IMG/VR virus record: IMGVR_UViG_3300025267_000006
Span: 32,001-96,000 of that record
Reading direction: 5' to 3' (one strand)
Length of the DNA: 64,000 nucleotides
DNA from: a virus
Taxonomy: Duplodnaviria; Caudoviricetes
The notes under the pieces were generated by a model, which did no database searches, had not been told where the DNA came from, and was given only the letters and a program-made list of their open reading frames with translations. Below, in pieces: positions 3,778 through 50,134 of the stretch. Position numbers and translations under genes: made by a program. Position 1 is the first letter of the stretch; each line of letters starts with the position of its first letter.

Positions 3778-3780
3778 TCC

Positions 3781-3878: not shown

Positions 3879-3896
3879 TAATTGATTCATAAACTT

Positions 3897-4065: not shown

Positions 4066-4290
4066 GTCTTTATGAATGATATACGGAGCAAGAGATTTGC
4101 ACAGAATATCATTCATAAAGACTTTACTAGCACTATACCAATCCTGCTCACTGTCAAATTTAGCCCTGATTTACTAGCACTATAACTCCACCCCTCTTAT
4201 GTATACATAAGAGGGAATAGAGTAACGACCAATTGCAAGTGGAATACTTAGCACTATACCAAAACCCCTACTCTGTCAAAGAGGCTCCTG
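4066..4290. repeat. cluster of inverted and direct repeats (origin-like)
   Basis: 17-bp perfect IR (4066-4082/4106-4122), 24-bp palindrome 4192-4215, three TAGCACTATA copies. Confidence 0.7.
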
Positions 4291-4836: not shown

Positions 4837-4869
4837 GTGCTTGACACATGTAAAGAATAATAGTATAAT
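4837..4869 (+). promoter_or_regulatory. promoter GTGC-TTGACA-N17-TATAAT
   Basis: perfect consensus. Confidence 0.85.
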
Positions 4870-4906
4870 CTTATTAGTTGGATAATACATTTGAGGAGAT
4901 AGCTAG

Positions 4907-5413
4907 ATGGTCACCTACAACAAGTTCTATCATTACGTTCCCAAAGACCCCCAGGACATGACCCTCGATGAACTCAATGATGAGATGGAGTCATGCAAGC
5001 ATTGGGAGCAAGAGTGCATCAAGATTGGTCAGGGTATCAATAGTAAGGAGAATCTCCGAGAACGTAGAATCGGGGCCGAACTCAATCGTAGATCAGAGAT
5101 GAATAACAATACCTATAACCAGAAAATAGAGGATGGAGTCTGCATCAAGTGCAATGGTGACGATGTGGAATGCCTGGAAAATTGCACCAAGCATGTGTGC
5201 ATCAATTGCAAATTCACCATGTGGGACATCACAGAAGATTCCTACAGGGCTGAATACGATAATATGCCCTGCCTAGAATGTGGTGAGCCTGTAAATGGTG
5301 AAGGTGTCTTCTCTACTGGTACTCCATTGGAATACCACAATCCAGCCCCCGGCGAACTTCTCAAGAATCTCTGGATGGAATGTGGAAATTGTGGATGGAA
5401 CCAGTACTCCTGA
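4907..5413 (+). CDS. Cys-rich hypothetical protein with two Zn-ribbon-like CxxC pairs
   Basis: CIKC, CINC, CLEC, CGNC; GAGGAG RBS. Confidence 0.65.
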   Translation: MVTYNKFYHYVPKDPQDMTLDELNDEMESCKHWEQECIKIGQGINSKENLRERRIGAELNRRSEMNNNTYNQKIEDGVCIKCNGDDVECLENCTKHVCINCKFTMWDITEDSYRAEYDNMPCLECGEPVNGEGVFSTGTPLEYHNPAPGELLKNLWMECGNCGWNQYS

Positions 5414-27637: not shown

Positions 27638-27670
27638 AGTATACTCTATTTAAGCACATCTGTCAAGCTC
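27638..27670 (-). promoter_or_regulatory. promoter GAGC-TTGACA-N17-TATACT
   Basis: reverse-strand consensus match. Confidence 0.8.
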
Positions 27671-31022: not shown

Positions 31023-31057
31023 AATGTCCCCACTGGTATCAAGTATATTAGAAAAAA

Positions 31058-34000: not shown

Positions 34001-34162
34001 CTGTATAAGTTCTAGCTGAAACAATTCCTGATAGCTCTCGTATACACGACCTCCCTCAGTAACAAAAGGAAGATCGTATTTTTGGACGAGAGATAGCTGA
34101 ATTCCTTCAATATCTTGAAGGAAATCTAAATCATAAGGTTTATTTTGTATGTCCAGTACCAT
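31058..34162 (-). CDS. large low-complexity Ala/Gly/Glu/Lys-rich putative internal head protein
   Basis: directly downstream of the portal; coiled-coil and disordered composition. Confidence 0.6.
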   Translation of the reverse strand: MVLDIQNKPYDLDFLQDIEGIQLSLVQKYDLPFVTEGGRVYESYQELFQLELIQCGLLAEEDELIFKEIPSGFIFKQKEFGRKWGFGPDAKKPDKPKKSPKEKTHKFSAPEEGIGKPDWDEGGDPSLAQRVLVGAFGDIAQGLIGRKGQGPESIRRGLKREAGEKVGEAKEAIGRKADVVGGAVATGREKAGEAVEGVKAKAKEIKEAIPGKEEVAETVGQAAGVFAGKIGNKARDIKAKMTSAATGLKVTGEALSSGFKAGLDSQKAPTSDIYKRSPQEYWKKRGDLATDKANADVNFNKAATAYEADGDEAAFEKATADYGASIAEVDRKAKEIGSSFEAVTDHVEALGQGRTRGVMPPSKDFPDAATKSGEKGSGKSMFEQTSKNLKGGLWSQKVEQRGEAWSQGKGAEESRFKGPGEEGAAAAEAYKEAGGAAGEEAGLREALKDPDKAITNLPKGSNIDSGDREYLTKPGQQPPEGVQVHFGEPGAQGQRSRFYSKTEANIRRMARRQKAQGQADQLGPEGEKSPEARKARAEQVKAGVEAAPDPLAGGLGKISESDIDDFIQDLKDQGVLKPGDTGSEDEARKVIEEGVAEAKEGEQPRLPGFNGEAAEEPAPSPAEGEAVQARLPGFDGEDEQQKREDEIVAERDKRREGGPASPETEPSEEPTPTPEAPPSDEPTPTPEAPSGVPKNVQSAIDRAERLADQGGKVAAQYSRLVGNVDKFATQAANGDVRMSDDQVKGFLDIAEDLTETANASRAANRTARRKMSNLTRTQSDFESVTGEIKTLEDAVNAGDDIDKKELETLKSEQSKLKVKRTKQVSDAKRAMGQASESKRALSASMKGVRKNIQDIKDNPAPDAPSRNQGWRRLVNRQPEGAPVPSPELPQFAEGSEERIEAEIHELPLIDVGAAEKMLADEGWGEKEVKEYVDHEMLRTVDPAIGDYQHPANAESEMGSKYVPRAIKAAQKMSTDPILTAAIAGGAIKLSKDTQYLWEMLDMADDLIDKQLISYGNYSPIIYSIDSYLESYSYN

Positions 34163-35998
34163 TTACTCTTCTTCCGCCTCTTCCTCTTCATCTGACCACT
34201 TTTCAGTAGCAGACTCATCAAGAAGACCACCTTCCAAAGGACCCGGAGGTGGTGGAGGGGGAGGACCAAGTGGAGGGGCCGCTCCTCCAGCTTCCATACC
34301 AGGCATGGGCGGTGCTCCAGCCATAGCCGCCATTGGATCTCCACCTGGCGGAGCCGCCGCCTTCTTATATGTAAATCGTATGTCCTTGCCAGTATCCTTC
34401 TGAGGCTCAAATCCAAGTTGCTGCATCTGAGTAGCAATCTCTATGCGCTGCTTCTCCATAGCAAGGTTAATATCTTCAGTCTCTTCTCTTGGAGGTGCCA
34501 ATCCTATAGTCCAATCGTCAACACCTAATTGTTTTAACAAGTTAGGCATTATCGTATCGTTGAATATACTCTGATACGACTCAATCAAAGCATCATGCAT
34601 AGAAGTTTGAGCCGATTCTTTTGCTAAACCTCCACCAGCACTCTGAGCATCTCCAGTGAATAGAGGTGTTACCCCCCACAGCATAGCTATACGCTCTCGT
34701 ATTTCCTGACGAACTGGAAGATAGTCCAATTCCTGGAACGTATACGCCAACTTAACAAAGTCAGTCTTACCACGGTTATTCCGTGCTGAAGCCGCAACCC
34801 ATGGGAATGTGTTGGGATCGTTCAACATTTGAGTTTTGATTCTCTCTATTTCAACTTCGAGAGAATCTGGATCATCCGTATACGTAATTATCAATCCCGG
34901 TGGGATACGCCTTTCATACCAATACCTATATAGAGTCCTGTCGGCCCCAACCAGAGACAAAACTTTTTCAAATACTGTTAATACTGGGGAATATCCATAA
35001 GTTTTAGAGGGGCTGAAGAATGAAGCATGTAATATCTCATCCTTGGTGTAATACCTATACCTGCCTCTCCAATAGTATCTATACATAGCTGGCAACAATA
35101 TGCCATTGCAGAGGAATCCCTCATCGTTAATAGCTACGCATTGACCGGGACTGGTATGTGTTTGCTGCTCACGGTGTATTGGACAGATAAAATGAGATCT
35201 TTCAGGAAGCCCATCTTTTCTATCTATGTCATATTCAGTCAGAGCAGGATGCAATCGAGTAATCTCAAATATTCTCTGACTCTCTACCTCCCCAGTCGCC
35301 CTATCTAGAATGTATTCCTTGTTAAGAAGTAAGAATCCGTCATCCGCTATCAAGACATCCTGTATAAATTCTATGAACACCGACTGCATTGTTTGATGGA
35401 AACTATTTGCATCTGTTTTCAGATCATCAAAAATCTTCTGCTGTGCCATATCGGGCACTCTCATTGGAGCCGTAACTCTCTTACCGTTCTCATCTCTCTT
35501 ATATTTTTTATAATTCTTAGTGGTATAACTACCAGTTTTTTCGTCTATAACAACTTGCTCTTGTATTTCATACAAGAAGCACTTATCACAATTTTCTTGG
35601 TCTTCGTCGGTAGATTCATTGCCACATTGAACACATTTACGTGCAAATTTCTGTACCCAGTTACTAAATCCCCGCCTAAACACTTCTCTTTGAATACTAA
35701 GTACAACAGAACGTATCTCAGTAACCTGGAAAGCAAGAACGAACAGGTCCTGAAGAATAGATCTGCGATAAATAAACTGTTGGCGTACCCAATCTTGGAT
35801 TATTGCGTCTAATCCAAGAGGAGACATACGCCCAGAAGACGCTGATCCTTGAGCGGCCTCTGCAGACTTAGTTAGCGCATCTAGTGTGCCTAACACGCCC
35901 TGCATTTTGTTGTAATTCTCGACCCCAGGAACGGGTTCAGAACCGTTTCTGCCGTTCTGGTTAGAGAATATATTTGCCAGATTGTCTATTATGCCCAT
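34163..35998 (-). CDS. portal protein
   Basis: follows terL; D.L..DDGF, EILH, YGYSP, PPGLI, IA..WGVTP pattern; Pro/Gly-rich acidic tail. Confidence 0.85.
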   Translation of the reverse strand: MGIIDNLANIFSNQNGRNGSEPVPGVENYNKMQGVLGTLDALTKSAEAAQGSASSGRMSPLGLDAIIQDWVRQQFIYRRSILQDLFVLAFQVTEIRSVVLSIQREVFRRGFSNWVQKFARKCVQCGNESTDEDQENCDKCFLYEIQEQVVIDEKTGSYTTKNYKKYKRDENGKRVTAPMRVPDMAQQKIFDDLKTDANSFHQTMQSVFIEFIQDVLIADDGFLLLNKEYILDRATGEVESQRIFEITRLHPALTEYDIDRKDGLPERSHFICPIHREQQTHTSPGQCVAINDEGFLCNGILLPAMYRYYWRGRYRYYTKDEILHASFFSPSKTYGYSPVLTVFEKVLSLVGADRTLYRYWYERRIPPGLIITYTDDPDSLEVEIERIKTQMLNDPNTFPWVAASARNNRGKTDFVKLAYTFQELDYLPVRQEIRERIAMLWGVTPLFTGDAQSAGGGLAKESAQTSMHDALIESYQSIFNDTIMPNLLKQLGVDDWTIGLAPPREETEDINLAMEKQRIEIATQMQQLGFEPQKDTGKDIRFTYKKAAAPPGGDPMAAMAGAPPMPGMEAGGAAPPLGPPPPPPPGPLEGGLLDESATEKWSDEEEEAEEE

Positions 35999-37998
35999 TA
36001 ACCACTATACCCGGCTAATTGCTGCATCAAAAATTCGTCCGATTCCCGCACCGTAACCCATTTTGACTTTGAATTGGAAGAATGCTTCATACGCTTCTTT
36101 TTAACTCCACATATTATACATGCCATGTATACGGCTTGAGTAGCCTCAAAGCATCTAGATCCAAACCCATCTTCAAACTCTATGCCCCCCACACGTTGGC
36201 AGCTATCACATATATCCTTGCTACTACTGACTATACGAGAAGCTATCTCATCCCTCTTGAATCCATTTTGGGGATTATTTAGATTCTCCAACACAGGATT
36301 CTTTTTGGCGTTTGAAGCAGGATCCGCATCTACTACAGTATGAGGGGAACTAAACAAGGTGTTTAAGTTACCCACGCTGCCCATACGTGTGAGTACTCCC
36401 TTCTCCTTCAGTACCCCGTGTACTGCACCTGCCACAGCATCAGCCCTATCTTTCTTCATTCCGGGTCTGGCATCAACCCGCTCACCATACACTATATCCA
36501 GACCTAGAAGCTCTTCTATTGCCTCTGGATGAAAATATGCGTCCAGTTTCTCCTGATAAATTAGATCTTTTAGGGTATCGTAAGCTTCTTTTGTTCTAGT
36601 TACAGACTTATATTTGGCTGGAACCCCCCTATTTTGAAGAGTTTGAAGCGAATTTATAGATTGATACTTATCATAGGTGACACTTGCAAGCTTAATTCCA
36701 TTATCACGTAGATTTAAAAGAAAATTCTCTATGCTTCTAAAATCTACATCTTTATCTGGTTGCGGTTCCCATGTCTTAATTAAATCAAGAAATACCGAAT
36801 CTTCATTTTTATCTTTATGGGCTATAGCTAATGCAGCATTAGAATGTCTTAGTCCAAGATCCACATGGACATAATAATAAACACCTTCTTTTAGATCAGT
36901 CTCATCTCTGATATTTTTCATACCAGAATGAAATAGATCTCCCTTCTCGTCTATATCTGCATCAAAACATCTAAGGACCGGTATGGGATCACGTATGAAA
37001 GCATCACGAGCATAAGGGGGATCACATTCGAATCTAGCTTTGGCTAGAATAGGATCAGTATCATAAAAATCTTTGAAATCCTCTTTTTTCTTAGATGGAT
37101 TGAAATCCCAGGTGGAGAAAGCACTCCCATCGGGGTTACATGCAACATAAGTACGTTCTTCTAATTTGCCCGCCTCAAATCGTCGTTGAATAAAAGATCC
37201 CTTAAAACGGGGCCATGAGAGGGATACAACCCTTCCAACCCCAGGGAAACGTGACTGTATAAGTGATTTAGCGGTTTTATATATTCCTTCAGCACCCTCA
37301 CTTCTTAAACCACTACTCTTACGTAACTCCTGTTCAGATTTGAAAGCATCTATCTCGTCTAGGAGGATCAGTATGGGTGTATATCCCTGCCAAGATTCAT
37401 TTTCAGAGTTACCGCTTATAAGACGTATATTTTTTGGGAAATTGATTAACGTCTGAGTCGCACTGTAAGAAATACGATTTGGATTATCAGCACCGAATAA
37501 TGGAGAATTTTTAAGCACATTAATCAATGTTTGAAAGTAAATATTTCTAGCTAAGTCTGCATTAGGAGCAACATTTATAGCATCAATGAAGCTATTACGC
37601 TCCATATTGAAATATTTTTGAGGGCTTTTAAGACAATTTAAAAGATAAACAATTCTCAATCCCACAAAAATAGAGCAGGTGTCTTTTCCAGACCCCTGCC
37701 CCGCCATGAGGACTCCCTCTGTGACAGGAGTCTCTGAGAAAATATTGGAAAGAGTATCAACGAATTTAAGTTGTGGAGGAGATAATCTAATAGAGAGATT
37801 TAAATTATCTTCACCATATAAAAATTCTTTTATGTCTACTGGGGATCTCTCCCAAACACCAAAAGTATCCTCAGTTACGTCTTCATTAGGATCTTTAGAC
37901 GTTAACTCGGATATATAATCAGCTAGGAACTGCCCGCTGGTTGTAAAGTTTACCGAGGGCGACGAGCTTTTCCCCGATCCGTTGGAGGGTGATAACAT
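35998..37998 (-). CDS. terL: terminase large subunit
   Basis: Walker A GQGSGKD, Walker B ILLDE, RNase-H-like HVDLG, YDKYQS, D.ADAVAG. Confidence 0.9.
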   Translation of the reverse strand: MLSPSNGSGKSSSPSVNFTTSGQFLADYISELTSKDPNEDVTEDTFGVWERSPVDIKEFLYGEDNLNLSIRLSPPQLKFVDTLSNIFSETPVTEGVLMAGQGSGKDTCSIFVGLRIVYLLNCLKSPQKYFNMERNSFIDAINVAPNADLARNIYFQTLINVLKNSPLFGADNPNRISYSATQTLINFPKNIRLISGNSENESWQGYTPILILLDEIDAFKSEQELRKSSGLRSEGAEGIYKTAKSLIQSRFPGVGRVVSLSWPRFKGSFIQRRFEAGKLEERTYVACNPDGSAFSTWDFNPSKKKEDFKDFYDTDPILAKARFECDPPYARDAFIRDPIPVLRCFDADIDEKGDLFHSGMKNIRDETDLKEGVYYYVHVDLGLRHSNAALAIAHKDKNEDSVFLDLIKTWEPQPDKDVDFRSIENFLLNLRDNGIKLASVTYDKYQSINSLQTLQNRGVPAKYKSVTRTKEAYDTLKDLIYQEKLDAYFHPEAIEELLGLDIVYGERVDARPGMKKDRADAVAGAVHGVLKEKGVLTRMGSVGNLNTLFSSPHTVVDADPASNAKKNPVLENLNNPQNGFKRDEIASRIVSSSKDICDSCQRVGGIEFEDGFGSRCFEATQAVYMACIICGVKKKRMKHSSNSKSKWVTVRESDEFLMQQLAGYSG

Positions 37999-38458
37999 CA
38001 GTTACCTCATCCCTAATTATCTTGGCTACATCTACTAAAAATTCATTAGTTAATTCGGAACCTCTTAATTCAACCTGTCCTTTTAACCCAGCAACAAGCG
38101 AATCTACTGCTTGTTTTTTATCCCTAAATCTTAATTCATCATTCAACACACCATCTTCGCCAGCCAGAGCTATCAATTTATAGCCCTGCATCAACTGACG
38201 TTTAGATTCTGTCAGAGTGGAGATAGAATCTTCAAAAACCTCCAACTCTGCACTTGTGTTGATCTGCTTTTTAAAGTCAGCCCAACTGTACCGATACCTC
38301 CAAGATTTCAGAGTATCTATCGGTACGTCTAATTGCTTATTAATAACGTCTATTGAGGTTCCTTGTCCAAAGAGGTCTTTGGCTTGTTGACGGATTTCTT
38401 TGGGCCACGCTGAGGAGCCTCTTGTTTTACTTTTATCTTCTTTATCTCTTTTTCCCAT
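37919..38458 (-). CDS. putative terminase small subunit
   Basis: N-terminal HTH (INKQLDVPIDTLKSWR..YSW), directly upstream of terL. Confidence 0.65.
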   Translation of the reverse strand: MGKRDKEDKSKTRGSSAWPKEIRQQAKDLFGQGTSIDVINKQLDVPIDTLKSWRYRYSWADFKKQINTSAELEVFEDSISTLTESKRQLMQGYKLIALAGEDGVLNDELRFRDKKQAVDSLVAGLKGQVELRGSELTNEFLVDVAKIIRDEVTDVITLQRIGEKLVALGKLYNQRAVPS

Positions 38459-39836: not shown

Positions 39837-42800
39837 TTATTTCTTTTTCTTCTTCCTAGCTGCAGTCCGTTTCGGTTTTTTATAGGTAACTTCACCACCA
39901 GTTGTAAGACTCCACCCCTTCTTCTTCAATTCTTTTAGCTTCTCAGCAATAGCATTAAACTTCTTAGGGGAAATAGAAGTTATATTCTTCTCAAGCTCTT
40001 CTGTTTCTAATTCATTGTACTGATCCCACTCATCGAACAGGTCAGGGTCTATATAATTACCCAAACAAGTTCCGGGATCATTACCTAAAATATCAGATGG
40101 ATCCTCAGCCAATTCCATCTTAGCTCTATCCTGCCTACGCTGAATCCATAATCTAGTTATGTTCTGAATATTCGCAGCAGTGAGGGGAGATTCACCTGCG
40201 TCTTTCAAAGTAATGGTATCAGCAATGACTTGTTTAACTATGACTGCTTCTACAGACTCCATAAATTCTTGTGGTTTGAGAGACGAGACAGTTCTATCCC
40301 CTATACTATAAGTAGTAGGGATATCAGCCTCTCCTATTAACTTAGCAGCCGCCTCATTAGCATGAAGTGTACGGAAATTCCTGGCAGTTAGCCTTACATT
40401 CGGAAGAGCATCAACCGTAACCCCTCTAATATAAGGATTTACATCCCCCAGAGGAGGGGTGCCAGTACCTCCCCATGCTCCAGCAGAGAATATGTAATCC
40501 TCATCTCCCAACTTCTTATCCCCACTCATTTCCGTAAGTTTCTTAGCCAGCACAGGATCTGTAACTGGGGCATGGTTAACTTTACCCGATTTACCCACGA
40601 AAGAAAGCATCACAGAGCCATCTGATTGTGGAACTATATGCCGTTTCTGTAGAGTCGATATGCCAAAAGTTTTAACAGAGAATTGAGATACTGCAGCATC
40701 CTTCCCTTCTCCACGTATCTTAGAGGCCAAAAGATCACTCTTTACAATAGAAACATCTGGCTTTACTTTCCTAACAGCAGCCAAACCTTTAGCCGTAGAA
40801 ACCTTTCCCCCACCCGTCATCAATTTATCGCCATCTGGAACACTTATATCAGACTTAGAACCTACACTACCGGGACGACGAGCCGTATGAAAAATCAGAG
40901 CAGCTACCATAGCTGATCTCTGTATGGTATTCAGCCCCATAGCCCTATGCTTTGAAAAATCCTCGTTGGAAGTATCTTCTAGTGTAAATCTCTGGGGGCT
41001 GGATATATCTGAAGCTGCTCTCTGAGCAAGTTTATCTATGATCCCAGACTTAATTAATTTATTTACCTTGGCAAACTTGGATCTACTACTACTAGCAGAC
41101 CATGACCAACTATACTTAGTAACTGGTTTTCCTTTAGGACTTACAAGAGTTGCCTGTACCTTACCGTTCATATTTGTATTGATTAGAACATCAGTATTAG
41201 TACCTATATTAACCCAATGCCCATCCCCTGTAGTAACACCAACAAGACTCTTCTCAACCTCACCAGTTTCTTCATTCTCTACTTCTTTATAGACAGCTAC
41301 ATTAGGTTGAAGGGGAGTATCATTTGGATCATTAGCTCCTAAACCAGATACATAAGCTTGTCTGGTCTGTGCCGTAATCTGTGCACCAGAGATTTCCTCC
41401 AAACCCTTCGCATATTCTTCTATAGGCACCATCTGAAGTCCGCTAGGAAGCTCAGGATCAGGATCGACGGGTTTTCTAGCTCCCCTAGGAGCACCAGCCC
41501 CGGTAACCATTCCAGGCCCTATAGGGGCACCATCGGCAGTAATCTCATATCCAATAACATCATATTTACCGCCATGAGGGCCAACATGTTTTCCCCTATC
41601 ATGCCGATACTTTTGAGTTTCAGGAAGCTTCCAAGTCCAATCCTCAAATCGTGCCCATTCGGATTCTTCCTGTTTAGCCAGATACTCTACAGCAGTGAGA
41701 AGAGTCATAAGTTCAGGGAAATCGTCTGACTTCTGAACCTTACTCGACCCTTCTAAGACTTGAGCCAGTTTAGGATTTATAGACTTACCGCTCGGACTAG
41801 ACTTCGCTGATAGATACAGCGTTCTCATCCACTTACGGAACGGAGATTTCCAGTCTTCTCCATTTAATTTCTCAGTACCAGTACCAAAACGTACTGCTTT
41901 TTGGATATCTTCATGTCCCTTATGAAGTTCTTCCTCCAATGCCTCAGTGAACGCCTCTTCATTCTCAGCCTTCCAATGACCATTTGCGACACCAGATTCC
42001 TCCGCAGCAGCTTGCCGCTGTCTTGGAGAGAGATCCCTTCTATAGATATTACCCACACCACGAATCATGTCTTTAACTTTATCTACAGACAAGAACTGTT
42101 GAAAAGTATTGGAATCCTCTTGCAATACGGTTAGTGCTGTAAGATCTTCATTACTCATTGATTCTAAAGCTGCAGGAGTTTCTGAAATCTTAAATGTCTC
42201 ATAATCAGTAGTCTGACCGTTATAGCATCCAAGACCAGCCTTGTCCCCACCCATATCGCAGTTAGCACAGGTCCAATTATCCAAAGTGGGCTTAACTTCA
42301 AACTTTTCTGCTGTCTTTTTTCTGCCATCATCGATGGGACACATGTTCACACCGAGATGCTTTCTATTGTCGCTAGGCTGAATAGCCCGAACCTGTTTTA
42401 TATCTTCAGCCGTAGCCCCATTGTCCTTCTTCTTTAGATCCCTAACAGGAAGAACTACCTGAATACGATCTTTGTATTTCTCAGCAAACGAAAGATTCCT
42501 ATCGAGTTCGGCTTGCCTCTCTTCTGGTGTTCGAACCTTGCCCGTCCTTCTATCTTTTATCGGACCTTTACCAGTGAATACAAATGCTATTGGAAGATCA
42601 TTGCCTTCAGCTATTTCTGGATTATCCTGATCAACACTCAACAACCTGATATTTTCTTTAGCCACCATATTTAAAAATGCTGGACGCTTAGAAAATACAT
42701 GGACTCTGATGCCCGTACCCTTTGGTGTCTCCGCTCTATTTACGTGATAGATTACTTTGGCCCAAGCCTCAGACCCTTCTCCCCTATCAAAGAACCTTAA

Positions 42801-43940
42801 GGCACGATTATTATCAAAAAGAACTTTTCCTTTGCCGTATACAAAATCTTTAGCAACTTGTGCTGCAAATCTCTTAGGGTCATTATTCACAGCCCACTCT
42901 AGAAACTCCGATTTCATAATAATATTGGGCCATCGCCCCCTAGCGTTATAAGCGTAACAAAAATCCTTACAATCACCAGAAGGATTACAATTCAAAGGAC
43001 TTGCCGCTACGGCCCCCACAGGTTTAGCTGGACTACCCATGGCTTGAGATTTTTCAATATAATCCCATATGGCTTCACCGCCATCACTTTTAATAGCTTC
43101 ACCAAGCTCGTGTCTGGCAACAGAACTTTCACTTTCTCTTTCATCAATGGCAAAAAATGGATGATCCTCACCATTCAATAGGGCTGCTATTCCCTGCCTA
43201 CATTCAGCAGATCTCTTAACAGCTAACCCCCAGGGACTCTTCCTCCACTCATCCCTGTCTTCTTCCTCAACTCCCATCTCCTCTAGCACATCATCTAAAG
43301 TTTTTCCTAACGCTTCAGCCTGTTCCTCTAAGCTATCGGCAGACCATACGTCTAATCTATCTTCTATCGCTCCAAGACCTACATTCTGTCCATCCACAAA
43401 TCCTTCATGATCTATCTCGTCTAACCACGAACCAGCTATTTCTTCAACTCTATTTTCAGGAGTGTTTCCTAATAGTCCAAGTCCTTTAACAAAAGCAGCT
43501 ACACTTTTGATTTGATCTTCATTCAAATCGGGACGAACTGCACGTAACTTCTCTAGATGAGCGGCCTCAGCAGGATTAGCTTCAGTAGGAGCTTGAGGTT
43601 GAGGTTGAGGCACACCAGCAGGAGCTAAGGGATTTCCCTCTTGATCCACTTCCGTTCCTATTATTGAAAAACGTCCCTCTCTTGGCCCCTTATGTTGGCC
43701 CTCAGGATGGTAGTGACGCTTCTCTGGGGGAACAAACCCCGTAACCCACTCCTCAGAGATTTCACCCTGCTTAAATAAATATTCAGCAGCGGCAAGAAGA
43801 GTCATAAGTTCAGGAAGGTCGTTAGATTTCTTCAACTTCTTATTCTTCTTTTTATATTTATCTGCTTTATTGGAATCTCGAACAGATTTAATCCAATTAG
43901 CACTTTCATACGATCTATCTACATTTATTCGTATTACCAT
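39837..43940 (-). CDS. 1367-aa modular protein: leader + GP88-like Cys domain + leader + DNA topoisomerase IB
   Basis: NCNPSGDCKDFCYA...RFFDRG...FSKR; topo IB RPG, FVGKSG, NFRT, LGN, NYIDP. Confidence 0.85.
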   Translation of the reverse strand: MVIRINVDRSYESANWIKSVRDSNKADKYKKKNKKLKKSNDLPELMTLLAAAEYLFKQGEISEEWVTGFVPPEKRHYHPEGQHKGPREGRFSIIGTEVDQEGNPLAPAGVPQPQPQAPTEANPAEAAHLEKLRAVRPDLNEDQIKSVAAFVKGLGLLGNTPENRVEEIAGSWLDEIDHEGFVDGQNVGLGAIEDRLDVWSADSLEEQAEALGKTLDDVLEEMGVEEEDRDEWRKSPWGLAVKRSAECRQGIAALLNGEDHPFFAIDERESESSVARHELGEAIKSDGGEAIWDYIEKSQAMGSPAKPVGAVAASPLNCNPSGDCKDFCYAYNARGRWPNIIMKSEFLEWAVNNDPKRFAAQVAKDFVYGKGKVLFDNNRALRFFDRGEGSEAWAKVIYHVNRAETPKGTGIRVHVFSKRPAFLNMVAKENIRLLSVDQDNPEIAEGNDLPIAFVFTGKGPIKDRRTGKVRTPEERQAELDRNLSFAEKYKDRIQVVLPVRDLKKKDNGATAEDIKQVRAIQPSDNRKHLGVNMCPIDDGRKKTAEKFEVKPTLDNWTCANCDMGGDKAGLGCYNGQTTDYETFKISETPAALESMSNEDLTALTVLQEDSNTFQQFLSVDKVKDMIRGVGNIYRRDLSPRQRQAAAEESGVANGHWKAENEEAFTEALEEELHKGHEDIQKAVRFGTGTEKLNGEDWKSPFRKWMRTLYLSAKSSPSGKSINPKLAQVLEGSSKVQKSDDFPELMTLLTAVEYLAKQEESEWARFEDWTWKLPETQKYRHDRGKHVGPHGGKYDVIGYEITADGAPIGPGMVTGAGAPRGARKPVDPDPELPSGLQMVPIEEYAKGLEEISGAQITAQTRQAYVSGLGANDPNDTPLQPNVAVYKEVENEETGEVEKSLVGVTTGDGHWVNIGTNTDVLINTNMNGKVQATLVSPKGKPVTKYSWSWSASSSRSKFAKVNKLIKSGIIDKLAQRAASDISSPQRFTLEDTSNEDFSKHRAMGLNTIQRSAMVAALIFHTARRPGSVGSKSDISVPDGDKLMTGGGKVSTAKGLAAVRKVKPDVSIVKSDLLASKIRGEGKDAAVSQFSVKTFGISTLQKRHIVPQSDGSVMLSFVGKSGKVNHAPVTDPVLAKKLTEMSGDKKLGDEDYIFSAGAWGGTGTPPLGDVNPYIRGVTVDALPNVRLTARNFRTLHANEAAAKLIGEADIPTTYSIGDRTVSSLKPQEFMESVEAVIVKQVIADTITLKDAGESPLTAANIQNITRLWIQRRQDRAKMELAEDPSDILGNDPGTCLGNYIDPDLFDEWDQYNELETEELEKNITSISPKKFNAIAEKLKELKKKGWSLTTGGEVTYKKPKRTAARKKKKK

Positions 43941-46900
43941 AATAATTCCCTACGCTGGTCGAGGTTCCCCAACTGTACCCTTCACGGGTTTCTCATCCTC
44001 ATCGCTACTTGGAGCCGCAGCTAGTAATTCTGCTATACGTTCTGGGGAAGGAGTTCCCACTACGGATTGTTTTAAACTCTCTGCCAACTGTTTATCTCCT
44101 TGCTTCCTTCTCTCCACTAACTGATGCTCTGTAAGTTTGGGTGCTTTAGTAGGAAAGGTAGAACTTTCCTCTGTATCAGCATAAGGATCAATAGACAATT
44201 TATCATCTGATGACAACTCTGCCCAGAGCCTAGGATGAACACTTCCCGACTCAGGTTCCCATCTTCTAGCTAAGCTCATAGCGGTCAATATTGATTCACG
44301 TTTCGAAGGATTCATTCTATGAATACCCTCAGCGTCAAAGTGTCCATATTGATGATCAATCTTATCAACGTCACTCATAGTCTCCTGATTATATTCCTCT
44401 ATCATCTGAGCTACAGAATCTCTATAATCCCATACCTGTGTCTTCCTATTAGGAGAATTAATTCCAAGAACCTCATTCTCATTACCAAGAAAGGCATAAG
44501 ATCCAAAATGAGTGAAAATATCATCTTTAGATATCTCAGATTTAAGAACTACAATTTCATCCGCCTTATCGCCAACCCATCTGTCAAAAGTCGATGATGG
44601 CTCAGCCTTCGGATTCATCTCATCTTGATACTTCTCATAAGAGGTAGACTCAAGCAACCAATCATTATCAGAAGCCTTGGCTGAAAATTTAAAAGCTACA
44701 TAAGGTTTAATTGTCCAACTCGTAAGGGGATTGGATTGAAGCTCCACTTCCTCACCCAAATAAGATTTTTCTCTCACTTCGTCTTTTAATCTAGCTCTCC
44801 GATATAATTTATCCCTCCCCTTCTCACCCACCGCTGTTATCTCACCATATTTACCCTCACGGGTAAATTTTCTAGATGGATCCGCTATCTCTCCTACAGT
44901 AGTACCCCTGTAAACAGTCAAAGTGTCCGTATCAGGAAAAGCCAAGTCCAGCATCCACCTACTCAAAGCTTTATGAACTCTTACATACTCATCAATATCC
45001 TCTTGAGTAGGTTTTGCCCCAAGTTCCTCTTCCTCCCACTTAGATTCCAACAGTTGTTCAGCATTATCTTTCGCCAGAGACAGACCTCTATCATCTTTGG
45101 CTCCCTGAAAAAATTGAACATCCCCATCAAACTGACGACCCACAGATTCCTGAATAGCCCAGGAGAAATAACCGCCAGTAGAATCAGCTTCCCAATCATC
45201 CTTAGCCAACCTATGAATGGTTGAGAATTTAGTATTTGAATATAACTCATCCACCACACGAACCAATCTTGAGGTTGGGTCTGAACTCTCTAAATTCTGT
45301 AACCCACTTAAAACTTGACCATCAAATGTAGAATTTGGGAATGCTTTCCTGAATCCATCTTTACCCCCCTCTGGCATGGAAAGATTCTCAGAAAAATAAT
45401 TTATTAAATCATTCCCCAGATAACTAGCAGCTTTATATCTCAGGAAAGCTTGCTGAGCTATCGTAGGATTTGAATGCTCCATAAGAGGTAAAGCTTCTTG
45501 GCTGTTATATCCATTAACCCACTTATTCCTACGAGTAAAAGAAGGAAAAAGCCTTTCTTCATATAACTTTTCCAAAAAGAAATCCCTTTGTTCCTCCCTT
45601 CCCTTATCCCCAAACAGATCTTGTGCAGTTCTAAGTACGGTTCCTATTTCCCCTTCATGCAAAACAGGTTCAGGTTTCGTCCATTTACCTCTTCTTGCCG
45701 CAGTTGGATCTAATTTTATATCCCTTTCAATCATCTGCTTGTCAACGGTATCCCAATCCACCTCGTACTGGCCCGGAGTATATGAAGTTGGGATTTCTAT
45801 AGGAGTTTGTCTAACCTGAGTCGGTACAGCCTCACCTAAATCATTCCCGTCCTGATCCACTTCAGTCCCGATAATATCAAAACGACCTTTCCTTGGTCCT
45901 TTATGTCTACCTGTAGGACTATATTTACGTTTCTCTGGTGGGACATACCCTGTTGTCCACCCCTCAGACCCTTCTCCCTGCTTAGCCAAATACTCTGTGG
46001 CAGCGAGAAGTGTCATAAGTTCTGGAAGATCGTTAGATTTCTTAATTTCCTTCTTTATAGATAAGTCTGCATGTATCGCTACTTCACGAGTTCCAAGAAA
46101 ATCCCCTGCCGTATCAACACGAACCAAAGCATTATCTGGAACTGATTCCCTCGATACCTCACTTATACCCACTGTATCTGGAGTTGCATCACGGAAATTA
46201 ACTAGAGGATCACCCACAAATAAAGGGTTTTGTACTAGAGGAAACCACTGTTTAGTATCCTCCTCGGTCATTTCAACTGCTATATCGAAGTAGTCATCGA
46301 GGAAATCCGCAATGTCCGCTCTATTCCTCTGATACAAAGTTACGAAATGCCTAGTCTCTCTTCCTGCAGGAGGATCACTTTCGATATCTATTAGAGGCTC
46401 CAATGCTTGCTCATACAAAGCGGTATGAATGTCGTCAGAATCAATCTCTTCATCTATTTCCGCTAAACCCTTATCTGCCGCCGCTTGTAATCTACTATGA
46501 ATGTATTGAGCATCCTCATCAACATACTTATTCAATAACTCTTTTATCTTCACCCAATCACTATCTGTATAGTCCGTAAGCTCAGTAGGCACACCTAAAC
46601 GTGCTATCTCACCCGCACGGAGCATTTCTTTTTGCATAAATTTGGCATGTTCTGGGTCAGTAGTAAAATAGGCTGCATTGTTTAGTTCTTTTGTTTGTGG
46701 GCCACCTAGCCCATGTACCTGCTCCTCATCCCCCCTTAATGCCAAAATCGTCCCAGATGATTGTATTTTTTGGTGATGGGGAGAAACATGATACAAAACA
46801 TCGGGTAATTCAGCCTTAGCGATCTTCCTACCGTTCCCAGGGGATAAAGAATAGTCATTTGTTACGTGAACTTTAGGTTCAACAGAAGGAGCTTCTTCAG

Positions 46901-49220
46901 CCTGTTGAGGCTTAGGCTCAAAACTCTCCCCCTCAAACACCCAATCTTTACCGTACTCTAGCTGAGTACGTTTTGTGACTAATACGTTTGCCTCTCCAGC
47001 CTCTCCAACTTCGGGAGGTATGTTATATTGCTGATCAGGTAAATACGCATCTCCCTCCTCAGTACGTATTTTTATGGTCTGTGCGTCAGCAGCATCTAAT
47101 CCATAATCATCTTGTAACTGCTGTCTCCAAAAATCTGGATCACCTACATGTATGCCTCTAAGCCCGGATGGCCCATCTGCATATCCCACACTGTCTAAAT
47201 CATATACTTCTAAAGTATCTCCAGCCTTTGACCCCCATATAACACGAGCAACTTCCTCTCCCTCATCAGCCATACTCCAATCATACTCAATATTATCTTC
47301 AATCCACTCTCGTTCTTCTGCTTCTGAAGAAATAACAGCATCTTCCGGCTGTGGAAGGATGTTACCCTGCTGAGGGGGCATCGGAAGTTCGCTTATATCA
47401 TGAGGGCCAGGAGGTTGTGCCTGTGAAAGTTGACCTAAGGAATCACCATGTTCATTTACTTCTGTACCTATGATAGAAAATCTGCCGCCTCTAGGACCCG
47501 TATGGGTGCCTTCCATATGGTAGAAACGTTTTTCAGGTGGAACAAATCCTGAAGTCCACTCTTGGGACGGAGTTATTCCCTGTTTAGATAAATGCTCTGT
47601 AGCAAATTGATACTTATTTCTAACGTAATCCAAAGCTTCATCAGCAGAAGCTATCTCTCCCTCTTCCTGCTGCCCTTGAACATCACGAAGGATGTCTCCA
47701 AGCTCACGCCCTTCTTTAAAGCCAAGACCCTTCAGATCATTGCCTGTTAGAAGGGGAGCTATCTTCCCCTCTTTTAATCCACCAGCCTCAGAAACCTGCT
47801 TAATTCGATCCCGGAACCAAACATTCTCCTCATTTCCATGCTCAGTCATCGAACCATCAGGATTTTTAACTAATCTTCCACTTGCATCGGCCTCAGACAC
47901 AGCAGAAAGAAGATTTAGGTACTCAGTCCCATGCTTATTGATTAATCGCCTGAAAGCGGCATCTGAAGCCCCGTCTCGATGATATTGAAGAGGCTTGAGG
48001 TGATTCTCAACTAGAGAGGGAACTGTGGCTAAGATGTCCCTGTCATTAGTTAACTTGCCCAGGAATTCCTCTGTTATGGGAACACCCGCTGCCTCATGAC
48101 CGATAGCCCTACCATCTGAGGTAGTGGTCTCAGGCTTACCCAGGTCATGACATAACGCAGCCAGCATGATAATGGTTTTATCTTTTTCATCTGGAAAACG
48201 TTGGATAATCTCTGCTGCTTTATCCAGAGTCATCTTAGTGTGAATAAATACATCACCTTCAGCGTGGTAATCACTACGTTGGTGAGTATCCTTCAGTGCA
48301 GAGATTTCTGAGAACTGGGTATCCAGCACTCCCATATCATCCAGTGCCTGTATACCTGTAGATGGGGTAGGGGACTTCAATAATAACTTTTCGAATTCCC
48401 CAAAAACCCGCTCATTAGATATCTCAGACAAATCCATCGAACGAGCCAGTTCCTGGGTAGATGGATCTATAGAAAAATCAAACCGAGAAGCAAACTGTGC
48501 AGCCCTGTAAACACGGAGTGGATCCTCAACAAAGGTTTCCGGGCTTACATGTTTGATACGTTTCGCTTCTAAATCCTGTATGCCCCCAAAAAAATCCAAC
48601 ACTTTGTCATTTTTATAATCGTACATCAACGCATTGATCGTAAAATCTCTACGTCTAGCCGCTAATTCTGGAGATAAATTAGGGTTAGGCTCCACATCAA
48701 AATCGGTATGCTTATCTCCAACCTTAGTCTCAGTCCTAGGTAGGGAGATATCAAAATCCCCAACTTTGAATACACCGTAGATCTTGCCTACCTGATTCTG
48801 CTTGCCCCCCAAATCCTTTTGGACAATGTCTGATAGCTCATCGATGGTCAAACCATAAACTTCAATATCTACGTCTTTACTTGGTACTCCGAGTAATGCA
48901 TCTCTAACGCCCCCACCGACCACATAGGGATCGCCGTACTGAGATAGGGTGTTTAGAACATGCTGAGCTTCGGAATCCCTCTCTATCCAGGCCCGTACAC
49001 TTTCATTCTCCATGCCCGGAGCCAGAGTGGGAACGGGCTGACCAAGTGGATTTCCATGAGGATCTGTCTCTACCCCAATAATAGAAAAACGACCACCCCT
49101 GGGTCCTGTATGTTTCCCTTCAGGGTGGTAGTAGCGTTTTTCTGGGGGGACGTGAGAAGTTATCCCCTGCTTATATAGATACTCTGTAGAGGCAAGAAGG
49201 GTCAGAATCTCAGATAGTCT
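41518..49220 (-). repeat. five dispersed in-frame copies of a ~60-70-codon leader module (approx. 49035-49220, 47431-47603, 45832-46044, 43626-43832, 41518-41735)
   Basis: protein alignment by eye: (SNDLPELMTLLA)xEYLxKQ...VPPEKR..H.GP.xGRF.IIG.E.D..G..LG; copy 2 lacks the first helix, copy 5 is the most diverged. Confidence 0.95.
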
Positions 49221-49238
49221 ATATTTTTCTTGAGTCAT
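43950..49238 (-). CDS. ~1762-aa modular protein: leader + CCA-adding/HD + leader + ART-like + leader + ART-like
   Basis: VGGGVRD, DVD, RRDFTINA, EDPLR, ERVFGE, HDLGK; LYHVS..YFTTD..E; VYRG..SWT..ENE; start MTQEK in an ATGA overlap with the upstream stop. Confidence 0.85.
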   Translation of the reverse strand: MTQEKYRLSEILTLLASTEYLYKQGITSHVPPEKRYYHPEGKHTGPRGGRFSIIGVETDPHGNPLGQPVPTLAPGMENESVRAWIERDSEAQHVLNTLSQYGDPYVVGGGVRDALLGVPSKDVDIEVYGLTIDELSDIVQKDLGGKQNQVGKIYGVFKVGDFDISLPRTETKVGDKHTDFDVEPNPNLSPELAARRRDFTINALMYDYKNDKVLDFFGGIQDLEAKRIKHVSPETFVEDPLRVYRAAQFASRFDFSIDPSTQELARSMDLSEISNERVFGEFEKLLLKSPTPSTGIQALDDMGVLDTQFSEISALKDTHQRSDYHAEGDVFIHTKMTLDKAAEIIQRFPDEKDKTIIMLAALCHDLGKPETTTSDGRAIGHEAAGVPITEEFLGKLTNDRDILATVPSLVENHLKPLQYHRDGASDAAFRRLINKHGTEYLNLLSAVSEADASGRLVKNPDGSMTEHGNEENVWFRDRIKQVSEAGGLKEGKIAPLLTGNDLKGLGFKEGRELGDILRDVQGQQEEGEIASADEALDYVRNKYQFATEHLSKQGITPSQEWTSGFVPPEKRFYHMEGTHTGPRGGRFSIIGTEVNEHGDSLGQLSQAQPPGPHDISELPMPPQQGNILPQPEDAVISSEAEEREWIEDNIEYDWSMADEGEEVARVIWGSKAGDTLEVYDLDSVGYADGPSGLRGIHVGDPDFWRQQLQDDYGLDAADAQTIKIRTEEGDAYLPDQQYNIPPEVGEAGEANVLVTKRTQLEYGKDWVFEGESFEPKPQQAEEAPSVEPKVHVTNDYSLSPGNGRKIAKAELPDVLYHVSPHHQKIQSSGTILALRGDEEQVHGLGGPQTKELNNAAYFTTDPEHAKFMQKEMLRAGEIARLGVPTELTDYTDSDWVKIKELLNKYVDEDAQYIHSRLQAAADKGLAEIDEEIDSDDIHTALYEQALEPLIDIESDPPAGRETRHFVTLYQRNRADIADFLDDYFDIAVEMTEEDTKQWFPLVQNPLFVGDPLVNFRDATPDTVGISEVSRESVPDNALVRVDTAGDFLGTREVAIHADLSIKKEIKKSNDLPELMTLLAATEYLAKQGEGSEGWTTGYVPPEKRKYSPTGRHKGPRKGRFDIIGTEVDQDGNDLGEAVPTQVRQTPIEIPTSYTPGQYEVDWDTVDKQMIERDIKLDPTAARRGKWTKPEPVLHEGEIGTVLRTAQDLFGDKGREEQRDFFLEKLYEERLFPSFTRRNKWVNGYNSQEALPLMEHSNPTIAQQAFLRYKAASYLGNDLINYFSENLSMPEGGKDGFRKAFPNSTFDGQVLSGLQNLESSDPTSRLVRVVDELYSNTKFSTIHRLAKDDWEADSTGGYFSWAIQESVGRQFDGDVQFFQGAKDDRGLSLAKDNAEQLLESKWEEEELGAKPTQEDIDEYVRVHKALSRWMLDLAFPDTDTLTVYRGTTVGEIADPSRKFTREGKYGEITAVGEKGRDKLYRRARLKDEVREKSYLGEEVELQSNPLTSWTIKPYVAFKFSAKASDNDWLLESTSYEKYQDEMNPKAEPSSTFDRWVGDKADEIVVLKSEISKDDIFTHFGSYAFLGNENEVLGINSPNRKTQVWDYRDSVAQMIEEYNQETMSDVDKIDHQYGHFDAEGIHRMNPSKRESILTAMSLARRWEPESGSVHPRLWAELSSDDKLSIDPYADTEESSTFPTKAPKLTEHQLVERRKQGDKQLAESLKQSVVGTPSPERIAELLAAAPSSDEDEKPVKGTVGEPRPA

Positions 49239-49468
49239 AGCCCATATGTATTGCAAGCAGCCTCAAGTTTTTGGGGACTGTAGCCAACAATAAACTCATT
49301 TCCTATGCGAACTACTGGTGTTGACCTGTACCCCAAATCTCGCAGACGTGCACCAGCATCCATATCCACAGAAATGTTAAATTCAGTAAAAGAGATTCCC
49401 TTGCCCGAAAGCCACGCTTTCGTCATGTGGCAGGGACCTCAACCCATACTTGTATATATCTCTACCAT
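49235..49468 (-). CDS. nrdH: NrdH/glutaredoxin-like redoxin with in-frame TGA in a UxxC motif (probable selenoprotein, 77 aa)
   Basis: MVEIYTSMG-TGA-GPCHMTKAWL...STPVV.IG...IVGY; start ATG overlaps the upstream TGA. Confidence 0.85.
49395..49438 (-). promoter_or_regulatory. bacterial SECIS-like hairpin immediately 3' of the UGA
   Basis: UCCCU-GCCAC...C-GAAA-G...GUGGC...AGGGA; apical loop begins 17 nt after UGA. Confidence 0.6.
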
Positions 49469-50134
49469 CAACTCTTCTTCTTTCTAGTAGTTGATTTACG
49501 ATTCAATTTTGAACTGGCTTTTTTAGCATTAGCTCTCTTCTTCTTTGGTGGAGCAGCAGGTGGAGGAGTTGGAGTATAATTCTCTGCTGCTTCCCTATCG
49601 GCCTCAGCAGCCGTCTCCAGTGCTATGTTTATTTCATCAGCAGAAGCAACAGATTGGGGCGTAAACTCTACAGTACTGGGCGTAGATGATGTGGAAGTAG
49701 GAACATCAGTATCTGTAGAAATCGTAACAACACCCGCCGAGGTAGCAGTGGTGGTAGCTACAGTAACATCTGAAACCAGATCATCTCCATCAGACGAACA
49801 GACGCATACCCCATCCACACAACACTCACTTACCGGGGGATCTTTCTGAAAAAGTTTAGTTATAGAACTGAGTAATCCCATTGTCTAACCCCTTAAAATA
49901 GATGCTTTAGATCTGCCCTGTTTTTGGATTCCTAAAAAAAGTTTTCCAAGACGTGTACTCTTTTGGCACATCCCACGGTATAGCTCCTAATTCATCTTTA
50001 GACTTATTCCAACCATCTAACCTTTTAGCAATGCAATATCCCGCTGCCGCAACCATAACTACTACTATAGCACTACTAACGGCAACTGAAGCTTTTTTAT
50101 TTCTTAACATATCAATTACAAGCAGAATATCCAC
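49468..50134 (-). CDS. two hypothetical proteins (49468-49881 Thr/Ser-rich with basic tail; 49907-~50110 TM protein)
   Basis: ORFs between nrdJ and nrdH. Confidence 0.55.

Follow-up and report, generated by a model that had tools for sequence, protein, structure and literature searches.

Two giant genes with a repeated leader module

The window analyzed here is a 64,000-nt stretch (positions 32,001–96,000) of the 105,383-bp contig IMGVR_UViG_3300025267_000006 from IMG/VR, which comes from an uncultured marine tailed virus; to our knowledge, no relative of this virus is in culture. Two adjacent giant genes are located on the minus strand. Gene 1 (43950–49238, minus strand; 1762 aa from the ATG at 49238) consists of leader a, a CCA/HD region, leader b, region X1, leader c and region X2; gene 2 (39837–43940, minus strand; 1367 aa) consists of a pre-leader segment, a leader, a GP88-like region, another leader and a topoisomerase IB-like domain. 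The gene 1 reading frame is also open from a TTG at 49256 (43950–49256, minus strand); the most likely start is the ATG at 49238 because the database copy P0003 and the relatives L006–L009 all begin with that methionine, and because this ATG overlaps the stop codon of the upstream gene as ATGA. Gene 2 begins 9 nt past the TAG stop codon of gene 1, in the same frame, with AGGGA just 5' of its ATG.

An HMM search started with the five modules against the six-frame translation of the window identifies exactly five leader domains, with i-E-values from 3e-31 to 8e-44; the next-best match has an E-value of 0.053. The full contig, which was also searched, contains the same five leaders and no further ones. 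The first-pass annotation of five module copies across two adjacent giant ORFs is thereby borne out, with a module length of 68–81 aa (about 75). All leaders are on the minus strand: leader a (49032–49235, i-E-value 3.1e-34) forms the N-terminus of gene 1; leader b (47424–47636, 3.2e-31) lacks the first half of the helix; leader c (45825–46058, 1.2e-42) is followed by X2; leader d (43614–43847, 8.2e-44) is the first leader of gene 2; and leader e (41508–41750, 1.6e-37) is an “ESEWxRFxDWTW” variant that, in the window, P0006 and P0008, always precedes topoisomerase IB. Three of the five copies are located internally. In the 30 residues that follow each leader, P/Q/E/A/G/T/S account for 50–63%, so that the originally described “Pro/Gln-rich linker” is roughly right. 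The pre-leader segment of gene 2 (43839–43940, minus strand) has the pattern hIxIxxxxxxANWIKxVRD followed by a Lys-rich stretch; in relatives, this segment lies inside the polypeptide, after an X2-type domain.

The leader itself combines three elements: a KKSxDL stretch that is rich in Lys, an amphipathic helix with EYLxKQ at its end, and a small beta unit whose motif is YHxxGxHxGPRGGRF. Searches against Pfam, including the polyvalent-associated families, match no family, and searches against solved structures match no fold; the leader is a protein module without an earlier description. In the structure model, the helix spans residues 42–62 and the beta unit block has pLDDT of 83–87. Over 21 sequences, one Glu and two Gly residues never vary, and L, L, K, Q, P, Y, H, P, G, I, G and G hardly do. 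Among the 10 pairs of leader copies, dN is 0.24–0.78; dS could be computed for 8 of the pairs, at 1.4–2.8, and not for the other 2. The copies are old paralogues whose protein sequence is conserved.

Cargo domains

The first cargo (47829–48926, minus strand) is a class II CCA-adding nucleotidyltransferase with an HD domain, in agreement with the initial assignment. The PolyA_pol head (4.8e-21), the RNA-binding leg (PolyA_pol_RNAbd, 2.9e-7) and the HD domain (8e-8) follow in this order, all over their Pfam cut-offs, and PHROG 2244 is matched with an E-value of 3.8e-76; the best NCBIfam match, multifunctional CCA protein (3.1e-56), is under the equivalog cut-off.

The second cargo, X1 (46053–47417, minus strand), had been labelled as a first ADP-ribosyltransferase (ART)-like domain. 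This label has a language-model score of 0.85 to ART-PolyVal clusters in its favor and comes with no Pfam match. The segment can be divided into at least two sub-domains: the first, in the N-terminal ~150 aa, shares 64% identity with part of a ParB-domain (ParBc-bearing) protein, and the C-terminal part is a candidate H-Y-E-type ART, a possible assignment that we offer only as a lead.

The third cargo, X2 (43953–45818, minus strand), labelled as the second ART-like domain, starts with a helical region that is followed by a domain with the Arg, Ser-x-Ser and Glu-x-Glu motifs of the R-S-E ADP-ribosyltransferases, in order. In an alignment of 7 homologues, YRG and NPxSSWS are present in all 7 and GNExE in 6, the seventh being truncated. 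Of the top 30 rows of a structure comparison, 16 are ADP-ribosyltransferases, with Z-scores of only 3.6–5.1, under the chance level of the tool, for a poor model with pLDDT of 47.8; a profile search of PDB sequences found no ADP-ribosyltransferase. Overall, the identification of X2 as an R-S-ExE ADP-ribosyltransferase is moderately supported.

The fourth cargo, X3 (41742–43604, minus strand), is a Cys-rich region for which the “GP88-like” label is weak. The scores for Pfam GP88 (PF17338) are 13.3 bits in the window (E-value 0.075) and, in two homologues, 22.9 bits for P0024 and 18.9 bits for P0023 (E-values 8.5e-5 and 1.4e-3 in the two), all under the cut-off of 24.4, and a GP88 identity may serve only as a lead. 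The fifth cargo (39840–41498, minus strand) is a predicted topoisomerase IB, an assignment that is supported by a catalytic-core profile match: the excised segment matches Pfam Topoisom_I with 2.7e-5 and 24.1 bits (cut-off 23.7) and PDB entry 2f4q with 1.3e-5, and the stand-alone homologue P0008 reaches 4e-9 and 36.6 bits. A Pfam search of the window polyproteins, including excised segments, detects no recognizable peptidase domain, no MPTase and none of the hallmark polyvalent domains (polyvalent-clade ART, DdrB-type ParB and others).

Relatives and cassette shuffling

Leader-related sequences form 12 clusters among 1.84 billion representative proteins; no true leader match comes from GenBank phages or prokaryote genomes, and a tblastn search with gene 1 against GenBank phages matches the CCA region alone. 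On related viral contigs, the leader profile identifies 39 domains in 27 ORFs, and the module precedes varied cargo there, as had been predicted. The 36 inter-leader segments across these 27 ORFs fall into 13 BLAST clusters. The cargo types that can be named are CCA/HD, topoisomerase IB, DUF192 (e-21), a kinase-like domain, the GP88-like region and a Zn-peptidase-like region; the last is exemplified by L008, in which an HExxH region has weak peptidase matches (E-values 3.6e-4 and 1.5e-3, below the cut-offs). The earlier formula of one leader for one domain is too simple: leaders reduced to the helix precede DUF192 and are also found at C-termini (P0012 and P0013), with complete leaders occurring at N-termini; some cassettes contain several domains, and in one relative, cargo lacks a complete leader ahead of it.

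The unit of leader c and X2 is preceded by three different domains in the window, L006 and P0004, and P0008 is a stand-alone leader-topoisomerase IB gene (657 aa). To judge from these sequences, the leader is inherited together with its downstream cargo. Homology junctions between relatives fall in the leader or within about 55 residues of it in all five cases examined, and similarity between copies at the DNA level is highest in the helix-coding part (72–80% over 49–74 nt). Cargo exchange by recombination between leaders, as suggested at first, fits the data because the junctions are at or near leaders and because stand-alone leader-cargo genes such as P0008 exist.

Genomic context

The polyprotein genes lie on the replication side of the packaging module, following the replication/RNR block on the same strand, and appear to be translationally coupled to an RNR-associated redoxin gene. 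A separate observation concerns an NrdH-like gene, which has a conserved in-frame TGA at the catalytic cysteine. Downstream of gene 2 come five small ORFs and then, all on the minus strand, a terS-like gene (37919–38458), TerL (35998–37998), the portal gene (34163–35998) and two large post-portal genes (27669–34162) with products of 1034 aa and 1117 aa. The former product is low-complexity and coiled-coil-like; the latter contains a kinase-like domain homologous to leader-borne cargo of relatives (P0011, E-value 2e-14), and the same cargo/post-portal paralogy is found within L014 and within L016.

The portal has 553 relatives at E <= 1e-20. The order polyprotein, small ORFs, terS, TerL, portal is kept in the window, L013, L014 and L016; among the four leader-bearing portal relatives, three have such ORFs just upstream of terS-TerL-portal, and L015 starts too near the packaging genes for that side to be visible. 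L013–L015 contain further leader-bearing ORFs past the post-portal genes. The proposed proximity of leaders to head-packaging genes holds for these genomes. In L017 and L018, the small ORFs and terS directly follow RNR. The locus is accessory, an island between the replication and packaging genes, and not part of head assembly, because it is missing from these two relatives with 59%-identical portals. A second CCA enzyme, which has no leader, is a conserved core gene of the lineage. Neither a prohead protease nor a scaffold or major capsid gene is recognized on the contig, which may be incomplete, and no MuF domain is recognized in the window.

Possible functions of the leader-cargo genes

The earlier classification of both genes as polyvalent proteins is reasonable. 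Each polypeptide combines at least two disparate activities, namely CCA-nucleotidyltransferase/HD and an R-S-ExE ART-like domain in gene 1, and topoisomerase IB and a Cys-rich region in gene 2. The reading that we tentatively prefer, at a chance slightly short of even, is that both genes encode mosaic polyvalent effectors in which the leader is an address tag that delivers the cargo with the DNA. Under this proposal, each gene would be built from cassettes of leader, flexible linker and enzyme; the leader would take the enzymes into the procapsid, either singly or as one complete chain; and the enzymes would enter the host along with the viral DNA, a delivery likened to that of T4 Alt and internal proteins, P1 Dar proteins and giant-phage ejection proteins. 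Crossovers for cargo exchange may take place in the helix-coding DNA. We give about one chance in three to the chain being cut at the leaders. The full scheme, with the leader acting as a portable tag for capsid loading and ejection, the cargo freed by leader/linker cleavage and injected, and cassettes swapped via the helix-coding DNA, seems unlikely. From the initial interpretation, varied cargo and the link to head genes are supported and swapping fits the data, the one-leader-one-domain rule is too simple, and packaging, cutting at LxK/Q and injection are putative.

The association of leader-bearing genes and of a cargo paralogue with packaging and portal genes would fit delivery with the DNA, and HVTV-2 offers a precedent among portal relatives. 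Packaging and injection are predicted for polyvalent proteins encoded beside virion genes, according to the available text of PMC5512222; giant-phage ejection proteins bear 100–130-aa targeting propeptides (PMC5694885, available part), and a ~9-kDa N-terminal piece of P1 DarA is cut off by the prohead protease (PMC12810830, available part). Several observations count against delivery. The leader has a folded, strongly conserved beta unit, in contrast to the T4 targeting peptides, which are short and loosely conserved; leaders occur both internally and at N-termini, and there are helix-only and helix-less forms; the locus is dispensable, as L017 and L018 do without it; no protease, scaffold or major capsid gene that might be partner or cutter is recognized on the contig; and the replication-side position would suit early or middle intracellular enzymes just as well.

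The last two points also favor an alternative, which we consider doubtful: the polyproteins would not be packaged but would be multi-enzyme proteins that are made during infection and work inside the cell in tRNA repair, DNA relaxation and host modification. The leader would then be a docking or localization module that joins the enzymes of one or several polypeptides in a complex or directs them to a shared site. The genes come after the replication and RNR block on the same strand, with start and stop codons that overlap, the C-terminal helix-only copies and N-terminal complete leaders recall docking elements split between polypeptides, and the leaderless CCA enzyme being a core gene fits as well. 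On the other hand, ARTs, a Zn-peptidase-like region and a ParB-linked sub-domain are cargo types of injected polyvalent proteins in the available text of PMC5512222, the post-portal gene holds a cargo paralogue, and in relatives, leader-bearing genes flank the packaging/portal cluster on both sides.

An improbable reading makes the leader chiefly a processing element, a peptidase site that would free single enzymes without any targeting role; the peptidase might be a capsid protease or the Zn-metallopeptidase-like domain of some relatives. KKSxDL and E-x-L-x-K-Q are located at fixed positions and are invariant or nearly so, L008 has its weakly matched HExxH region, and MPTase-driven processing has been proposed for polyvalent proteins (PMC5512222, available text). 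However, a conserved beta unit of 30 residues is more than a cleavage site requires, leaders at extreme N-termini have nothing upstream to cut off, and the window polyproteins lack a recognizable peptidase domain. Nor is there a conserved nucleophile for self-cleavage, the Ser of GRFSIIG being Asp in two window copies.

A role as a nucleic-acid tether that would hold the enzymes on viral DNA or RNA is more improbable still. The Lys-rich stretch ahead of the helix and the RGG-like GPRGGRF motif in the core are suggestive, and P1 DarA and Hdf contact packaged DNA (PMC12810830, available part), but the five leaders are near-neutral or acidic overall (pI 5.2–8.4; D+E >= K+R in 4 of 5) and match no known nucleic-acid-binding fold. 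Finally, the repeat is very hard to explain as a DNA-level recombination scar or linker without protein function: the similarity of the helix-coding DNA and the junctions at or near leaders are as expected, but the protein is conserved whereas synonymous sites are saturated, the Gly, Pro and His positions show little or no variation over 21 sequences, and the leader core is modelled confidently.

A recurring module before each cargo would be the first sequence-level rule for the loading, order and release of polyvalent domains. Should the leader turn out to act as a loading tag, chosen proteins could be directed into capsids with it, and metagenomes could be searched with leader profiles for new injected effectors; if the portable-tag reading is true, the locus would be a natural plug-and-play effector-delivery system. 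Even without a tag function, it is an example of viral effector genes that evolve by cassettes, in an abundant lineage of marine viruses.

Comparison with known systems

A close parallel comes from phage-type polyvalent proteins. As described in the available text of PMC5512222, these giant polypeptides combine several unrelated enzymatic domains, including ART-type and peptidase-type ones, show extensive mosaicism, are encoded beside portal and terminase genes, and are predicted to be delivered with the DNA. In contrast, the window genes repeat one conserved module before each cargo, this module matches no polyvalent-associated Pfam family, and the window proteins have no recognized MPTase. 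The available text of that paper does not contain “linker” or “CCA”, and “topoisomerase” appears once, in its reference list.

The capsid targeting sequences of T4 (Alt and the internal proteins) are transferable tags before unrelated cargo that includes an ADP-ribosyltransferase, as the leader may be; according to the available part of PMC5694885, they are 10–20 residues long, strictly N-terminal, removed by gp21 and carried by separate genes. The leader, by contrast, is partly folded, chained in polyproteins and found without a recognized T4-type protease; its length and internal copies rule it out as a short, strictly N-terminal propeptide of the T4 type. A further parallel comes from the N-terminal extensions of SPN3US gp50, gp53 and gp54 and phiKZ gp86 (PMC5694885) and from the piece cut by Pro from P1 DarA (PMC12810830). 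These comprise 70–130 residues on packaged, ejected or anti-restriction proteins and are thought to be prohead-targeting; in the available parts of both sources, they are single N-terminal propeptides of separate proteins, likened here to the leader by description only.

In the haloarchaeal virus HVTV-2 (Haloarcula virus), with a related portal (24–27% identity), giant multi-effector genes also adjoin the portal: gp115 (1313 aa), annotated as zeta toxin and ART, is encoded just after the portal and MuF; the window post-portal proteins show no similarity to HVTV-2 gp113, gp114 or MuF. Effector domains of MARTX-type multi-effector toxins are released at inter-domain sites, and the cargo of contractile injection systems carries N-terminal loading signals. 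Although the machinery and sequences are unrelated and the likeness is one of analogy only, these systems have effectors arranged in series or tagged for loading, with exchange at the boundaries, as proposed for the locus described here.

The leader module

The giant genes 1 (43950-49238, minus strand) and 2 (39837-43940, minus strand) contain three (a-c) and two (d-e) leaders, respectively. The five copies noticed on inspection are real: the leader HMM retrieves them in a search of the 64-kb window with i-E-values of 3e-31 to 8e-44, the next best match in the window has an E-value of 0.053, and a search of the single 105,383-bp parent contig finds no leader beyond these five. The DNA identity between copies is 46-70%, and the best-conserved DNA is the helix-coding stretch (72-80% over 49-74 nt). 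Because synonymous sites are saturated (dS 1.4-2.8 in 8 copy pairs, not computable in 2) while dN is 0.24-0.78, the leader copies are old and are maintained by selection at the protein level.

The anatomy of the module, drawn from 21 sequences, comprises a Lys-rich stretch terminating in KKSxDL; an amphipathic helix terminating in EYLxKQ, with an invariant E and nearly invariant L, L, K and Q; a variable spacer; a core with the motif VPPEKRxYHxxGxHxGPRGGRFSIIG; and a Pro/Gln/Glu-rich linker. The leader is near-neutral or acidic. An AlphaFold2 model (overall pLDDT 62) places the helix at residues 42-62 and includes a small beta unit (block pLDDT 83-87). Pfam, searched at E-values up to 10, gives a meaningful match for none of the five leaders, and the CCA part is the only match of the whole polyproteins in PHROGs and NCBIfam. 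A Foldseek search of the PDB yields no match at E <= 0.001 (best 3.7), and a wide VIA search detects only single helices (best Z 2.9). Literature searches and a term search of PMC5512222 turned up no account of a repeated leader of this kind. That the leader is a new module under selection is well supported.

Several further candidates in the window were rejected. Degenerate leaders in the second CCA-adding/HD enzyme (CCA2; 25013-26620, minus strand; 29% identical to the polyprotein copy) and in the two large post-portal proteins are unsupported, with no significant match to a helix-only HMM and a BLASTP E-value of 3.5. CCA2, which belongs to the conserved core of the lineage's genes, encodes a conserved N-terminal extension of ~105 aa with LLxLDYxLxKQ and the invariant HRGGRTFERARTAWVNP that is leader-like by eye; an hhalign comparison assigns this resemblance a probability of 0.4%. 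In the related loci L013 and L014, the CCA2 gene bears a true variant leader and an additional C-terminal domain.

Cargo domains and cassette exchange

Among the cargo assignments of the first-pass annotation, the CCA nucleotidyltransferase/HD domain is solid and topoisomerase IB is supported. Of the two ART-like assignments, the second (X2) is moderately supported and the first (X1) is a lead. X1 consists of at least two sub-domains, one with a lead to ART-PolyVal (at 0.85) and the other related to a ParB-domain protein, with 64% identity to part of it. In X2, the R, S and ExE motifs are conserved, but the structural matches, dominated by ARTs, are weak and come from a poor model, and a profile search against PDB sequences returns no match. 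The GP88-like assignment is weak: the region is under the Pfam cut-off in all three homologues and has no usable match in the protein atlas.

The leader-HMM search of viral contigs proposed at the outset shows the same leader preceding varied cargo: the iterated profile identifies 39 domains, either full or partial leaders, distributed over 27 ORFs, and the 36 inter-leader segments of at least 80 aa fall into 13 BLAST clusters. In locus L006, leader a and the CCA domain are retained at 91% identity, the X1 cassette is swapped for an unrelated sequence, and homology resumes before leader c; the database protein P0004 carries yet another domain ahead of leader c and X2. P0006 joins the gene 2 N-terminus directly to a topoisomerase-type leader, which in P0008 precedes topoisomerase IB in a stand-alone gene. 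Five homology junctions were placed: one is internal to a leader, two are no more than 3 residues away, and the remaining two are 32-54 residues upstream. Partial leaders also occur, namely helix-only forms before DUF192 and at the ends of P0012 and P0013, and, again in P0013, a leader with the helix deleted.

The pre-leader segment at the N-terminus of gene 2 follows an X2-type domain within single polypeptides in P0009 and P0012-P0014. The boundary between genes 1 and 2 (43938-43952) is a cassette boundary. The frame is shared across it, a single TAG plus 9 nt lie in between, and an AGGGA directly precedes the ATG; the arrangement may reflect read-through or a recent split. It is well supported that the giant genes encode cassette-built polyvalent proteins, and likewise that the leader is tied to the cargo downstream of it and marks the points of exchange.

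Genomic context

A minus-strand run of genes encodes DnaB, primase, family-A polymerase, a UvsX/RecA-like protein, a Cas4-like nuclease, RuvC and ribonucleotide reductase (RNR), followed by a 137-aa basic protein, a small redoxin and both giant genes. Downstream are five small ORFs, then the genes for a terS-like protein, TerL, portal and the 1034-aa and 1117-aa post-portal proteins, past which CCA2 is located. Neither post-portal protein (genes at 31058-34162 and 27669-31022, minus strand) matches a known family; the first, of 1034 aa, is low-complexity and coiled-coil-like, and the second, of 1117 aa, contains a PI3/4-kinase-like (DRHxxN) domain. This kinase-like domain has a leader-borne paralog as cargo in P0011 and L014, and the paralog within the second post-portal protein is present in the window, L014 and L016.

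The proximity of leader ORFs to TerL and portal, expected from the first reading, is borne out, as the order is kept in the window, L013, L014 and L016, which share polyprotein(s), small ORFs, terS, TerL, portal, two large genes, o140, CCA2 and o128. In L013-L015, additional leader-bearing ORFs lie beyond the block ending in o128. In L017 and L018, the small ORFs and terS directly follow RNR; the polyprotein locus is therefore an accessory island. In L016, the TerL homolog (6885-9998, 1038 aa) is divided into two well-aligned halves by an insert of ~380 aa, and a neighboring 643-aa ORF (3402-5330) looks interrupted; both might be explained by inteins.

On the whole contig, no gene is recognized for a major capsid protein, a scaffold or a prohead protease. 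In the outer parts of the contig (positions 1-6484 and 102944-105367, loci L003 and L005), a tape-measure-like gene is truncated where the contig stops, within the tail module; the genome is thus probably incomplete. Also outside the window are genes for two dual-specificity phosphatases, a DnaJ-domain protein and an AAA ATPase. A scan for promoters and terminators finds no more sites than in shuffled sequence. Relatives of the portal number 553 at E <= 1e-20, for the most part from marine metagenomes; its matches among GenBank viruses are limited to haloarchaeal Druskaviridae (8 records, 24-27% identity). HVTV-2 encodes, in this order, TerL, portal, an unknown protein of 1048 aa, MuF and a protein of 1313 aa that carries a zeta toxin plus ART annotation; the layouts are alike by position only, and the post-portal proteins show no similarity to HVTV-2 gp113 or MuF.

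The 137-aa protein (49468-49881, minus strand) has Cys residues clustered at its N-terminus, a middle part rich in Ser/Thr and a tail rich in Lys/Arg, and weakly matches Adeno_VII (E 0.026). L006-L008 likewise encode it ahead of the polyprotein. Its stop codon overlaps the start of the redoxin gene.

A putative selenoprotein gene

The redoxin gene (49235-49468, minus strand; 77 codons), NrdH/glutaredoxin-like, lies between the basic-protein gene and gene 1 and has an in-frame TGA (49439-49441) exactly at the first Cys of CxxC. The TGA is kept in three of four related contigs and is replaced by Cys in the fourth. A 7-bp hairpin (about 49406-49424, minus strand; MFE -22 kcal/mol, z -2.6) is located 15 nt downstream, and its 19 bases are identical in all five sequences despite variable neighboring codons. 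Beyond the TGA, the product matches NrdH/YruB families starting at profile position 11-12 and, more weakly, 'UXX-star' selenoprotein families. TGA terminates 6 of 17 long genes on the viral DNA; therefore, the genetic code is not reassigned at this codon. Neither a tRNA-Sec, searched for across the contig, nor an Rfam element was found. The product looks like a putative virus-encoded selenoprotein beside ribonucleotide reductase.

Distribution of the leader

Among 1.84 billion representative proteins, the five-leader profile detects 16 at E <= 0.001: the window's own protein, 12 true relatives and three proteins (P0016-P0018) that were discounted as repeat proteins, their domain matches being scattered and below threshold. 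Four syntenic metagenome contigs have the order RNR, basic protein, redoxin, polyprotein. In a survey of 80 IMG/VR loci with portal relatives, leaders are present in the four loci with portals 67-68% identical, in neither of the two at 59%, and in none of the 74 at 36-40%. An IMG/VR pattern scan matched 126 stretches, none of them confirmed, and IMG/VR queries with P0009 and P0008 found no leader; as diverged leaders are present in the loci reached via the portal, the pattern scan had missed them. GenBank phages yield no true leader match: a tblastn search with gene 1 retrieves 475 records, all via the CCA region, and the two matches extending to residues 28 and 44 lack a leader by HMM. Of 11 pattern matches in prokaryote genomes, two loci were confirmed by tblastn and are attributed to chance, with matches of 21-26 residues, frames overlapping other ORFs and the other leader features absent.

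Possible function and comparison with known systems

The main rival explanation is that the leader is an intracellular docking or localization module. Given the genomic context and the analogy to known packaged proteins, the leader would instead target its cargo to the procapsid, with possible cleavage and injection. We regard packaging and delivery of the polyproteins as a tentative proposal, falling just short of an even chance, and cleavage of the chain at the leaders as doubtful. The functional analogy is to Alt and the internal proteins of T4 and to the ejection proteins of giant phages (PMC5694885), to P1 DarA (PMC12810830) and to polyvalent proteins generally (PMC5512222).
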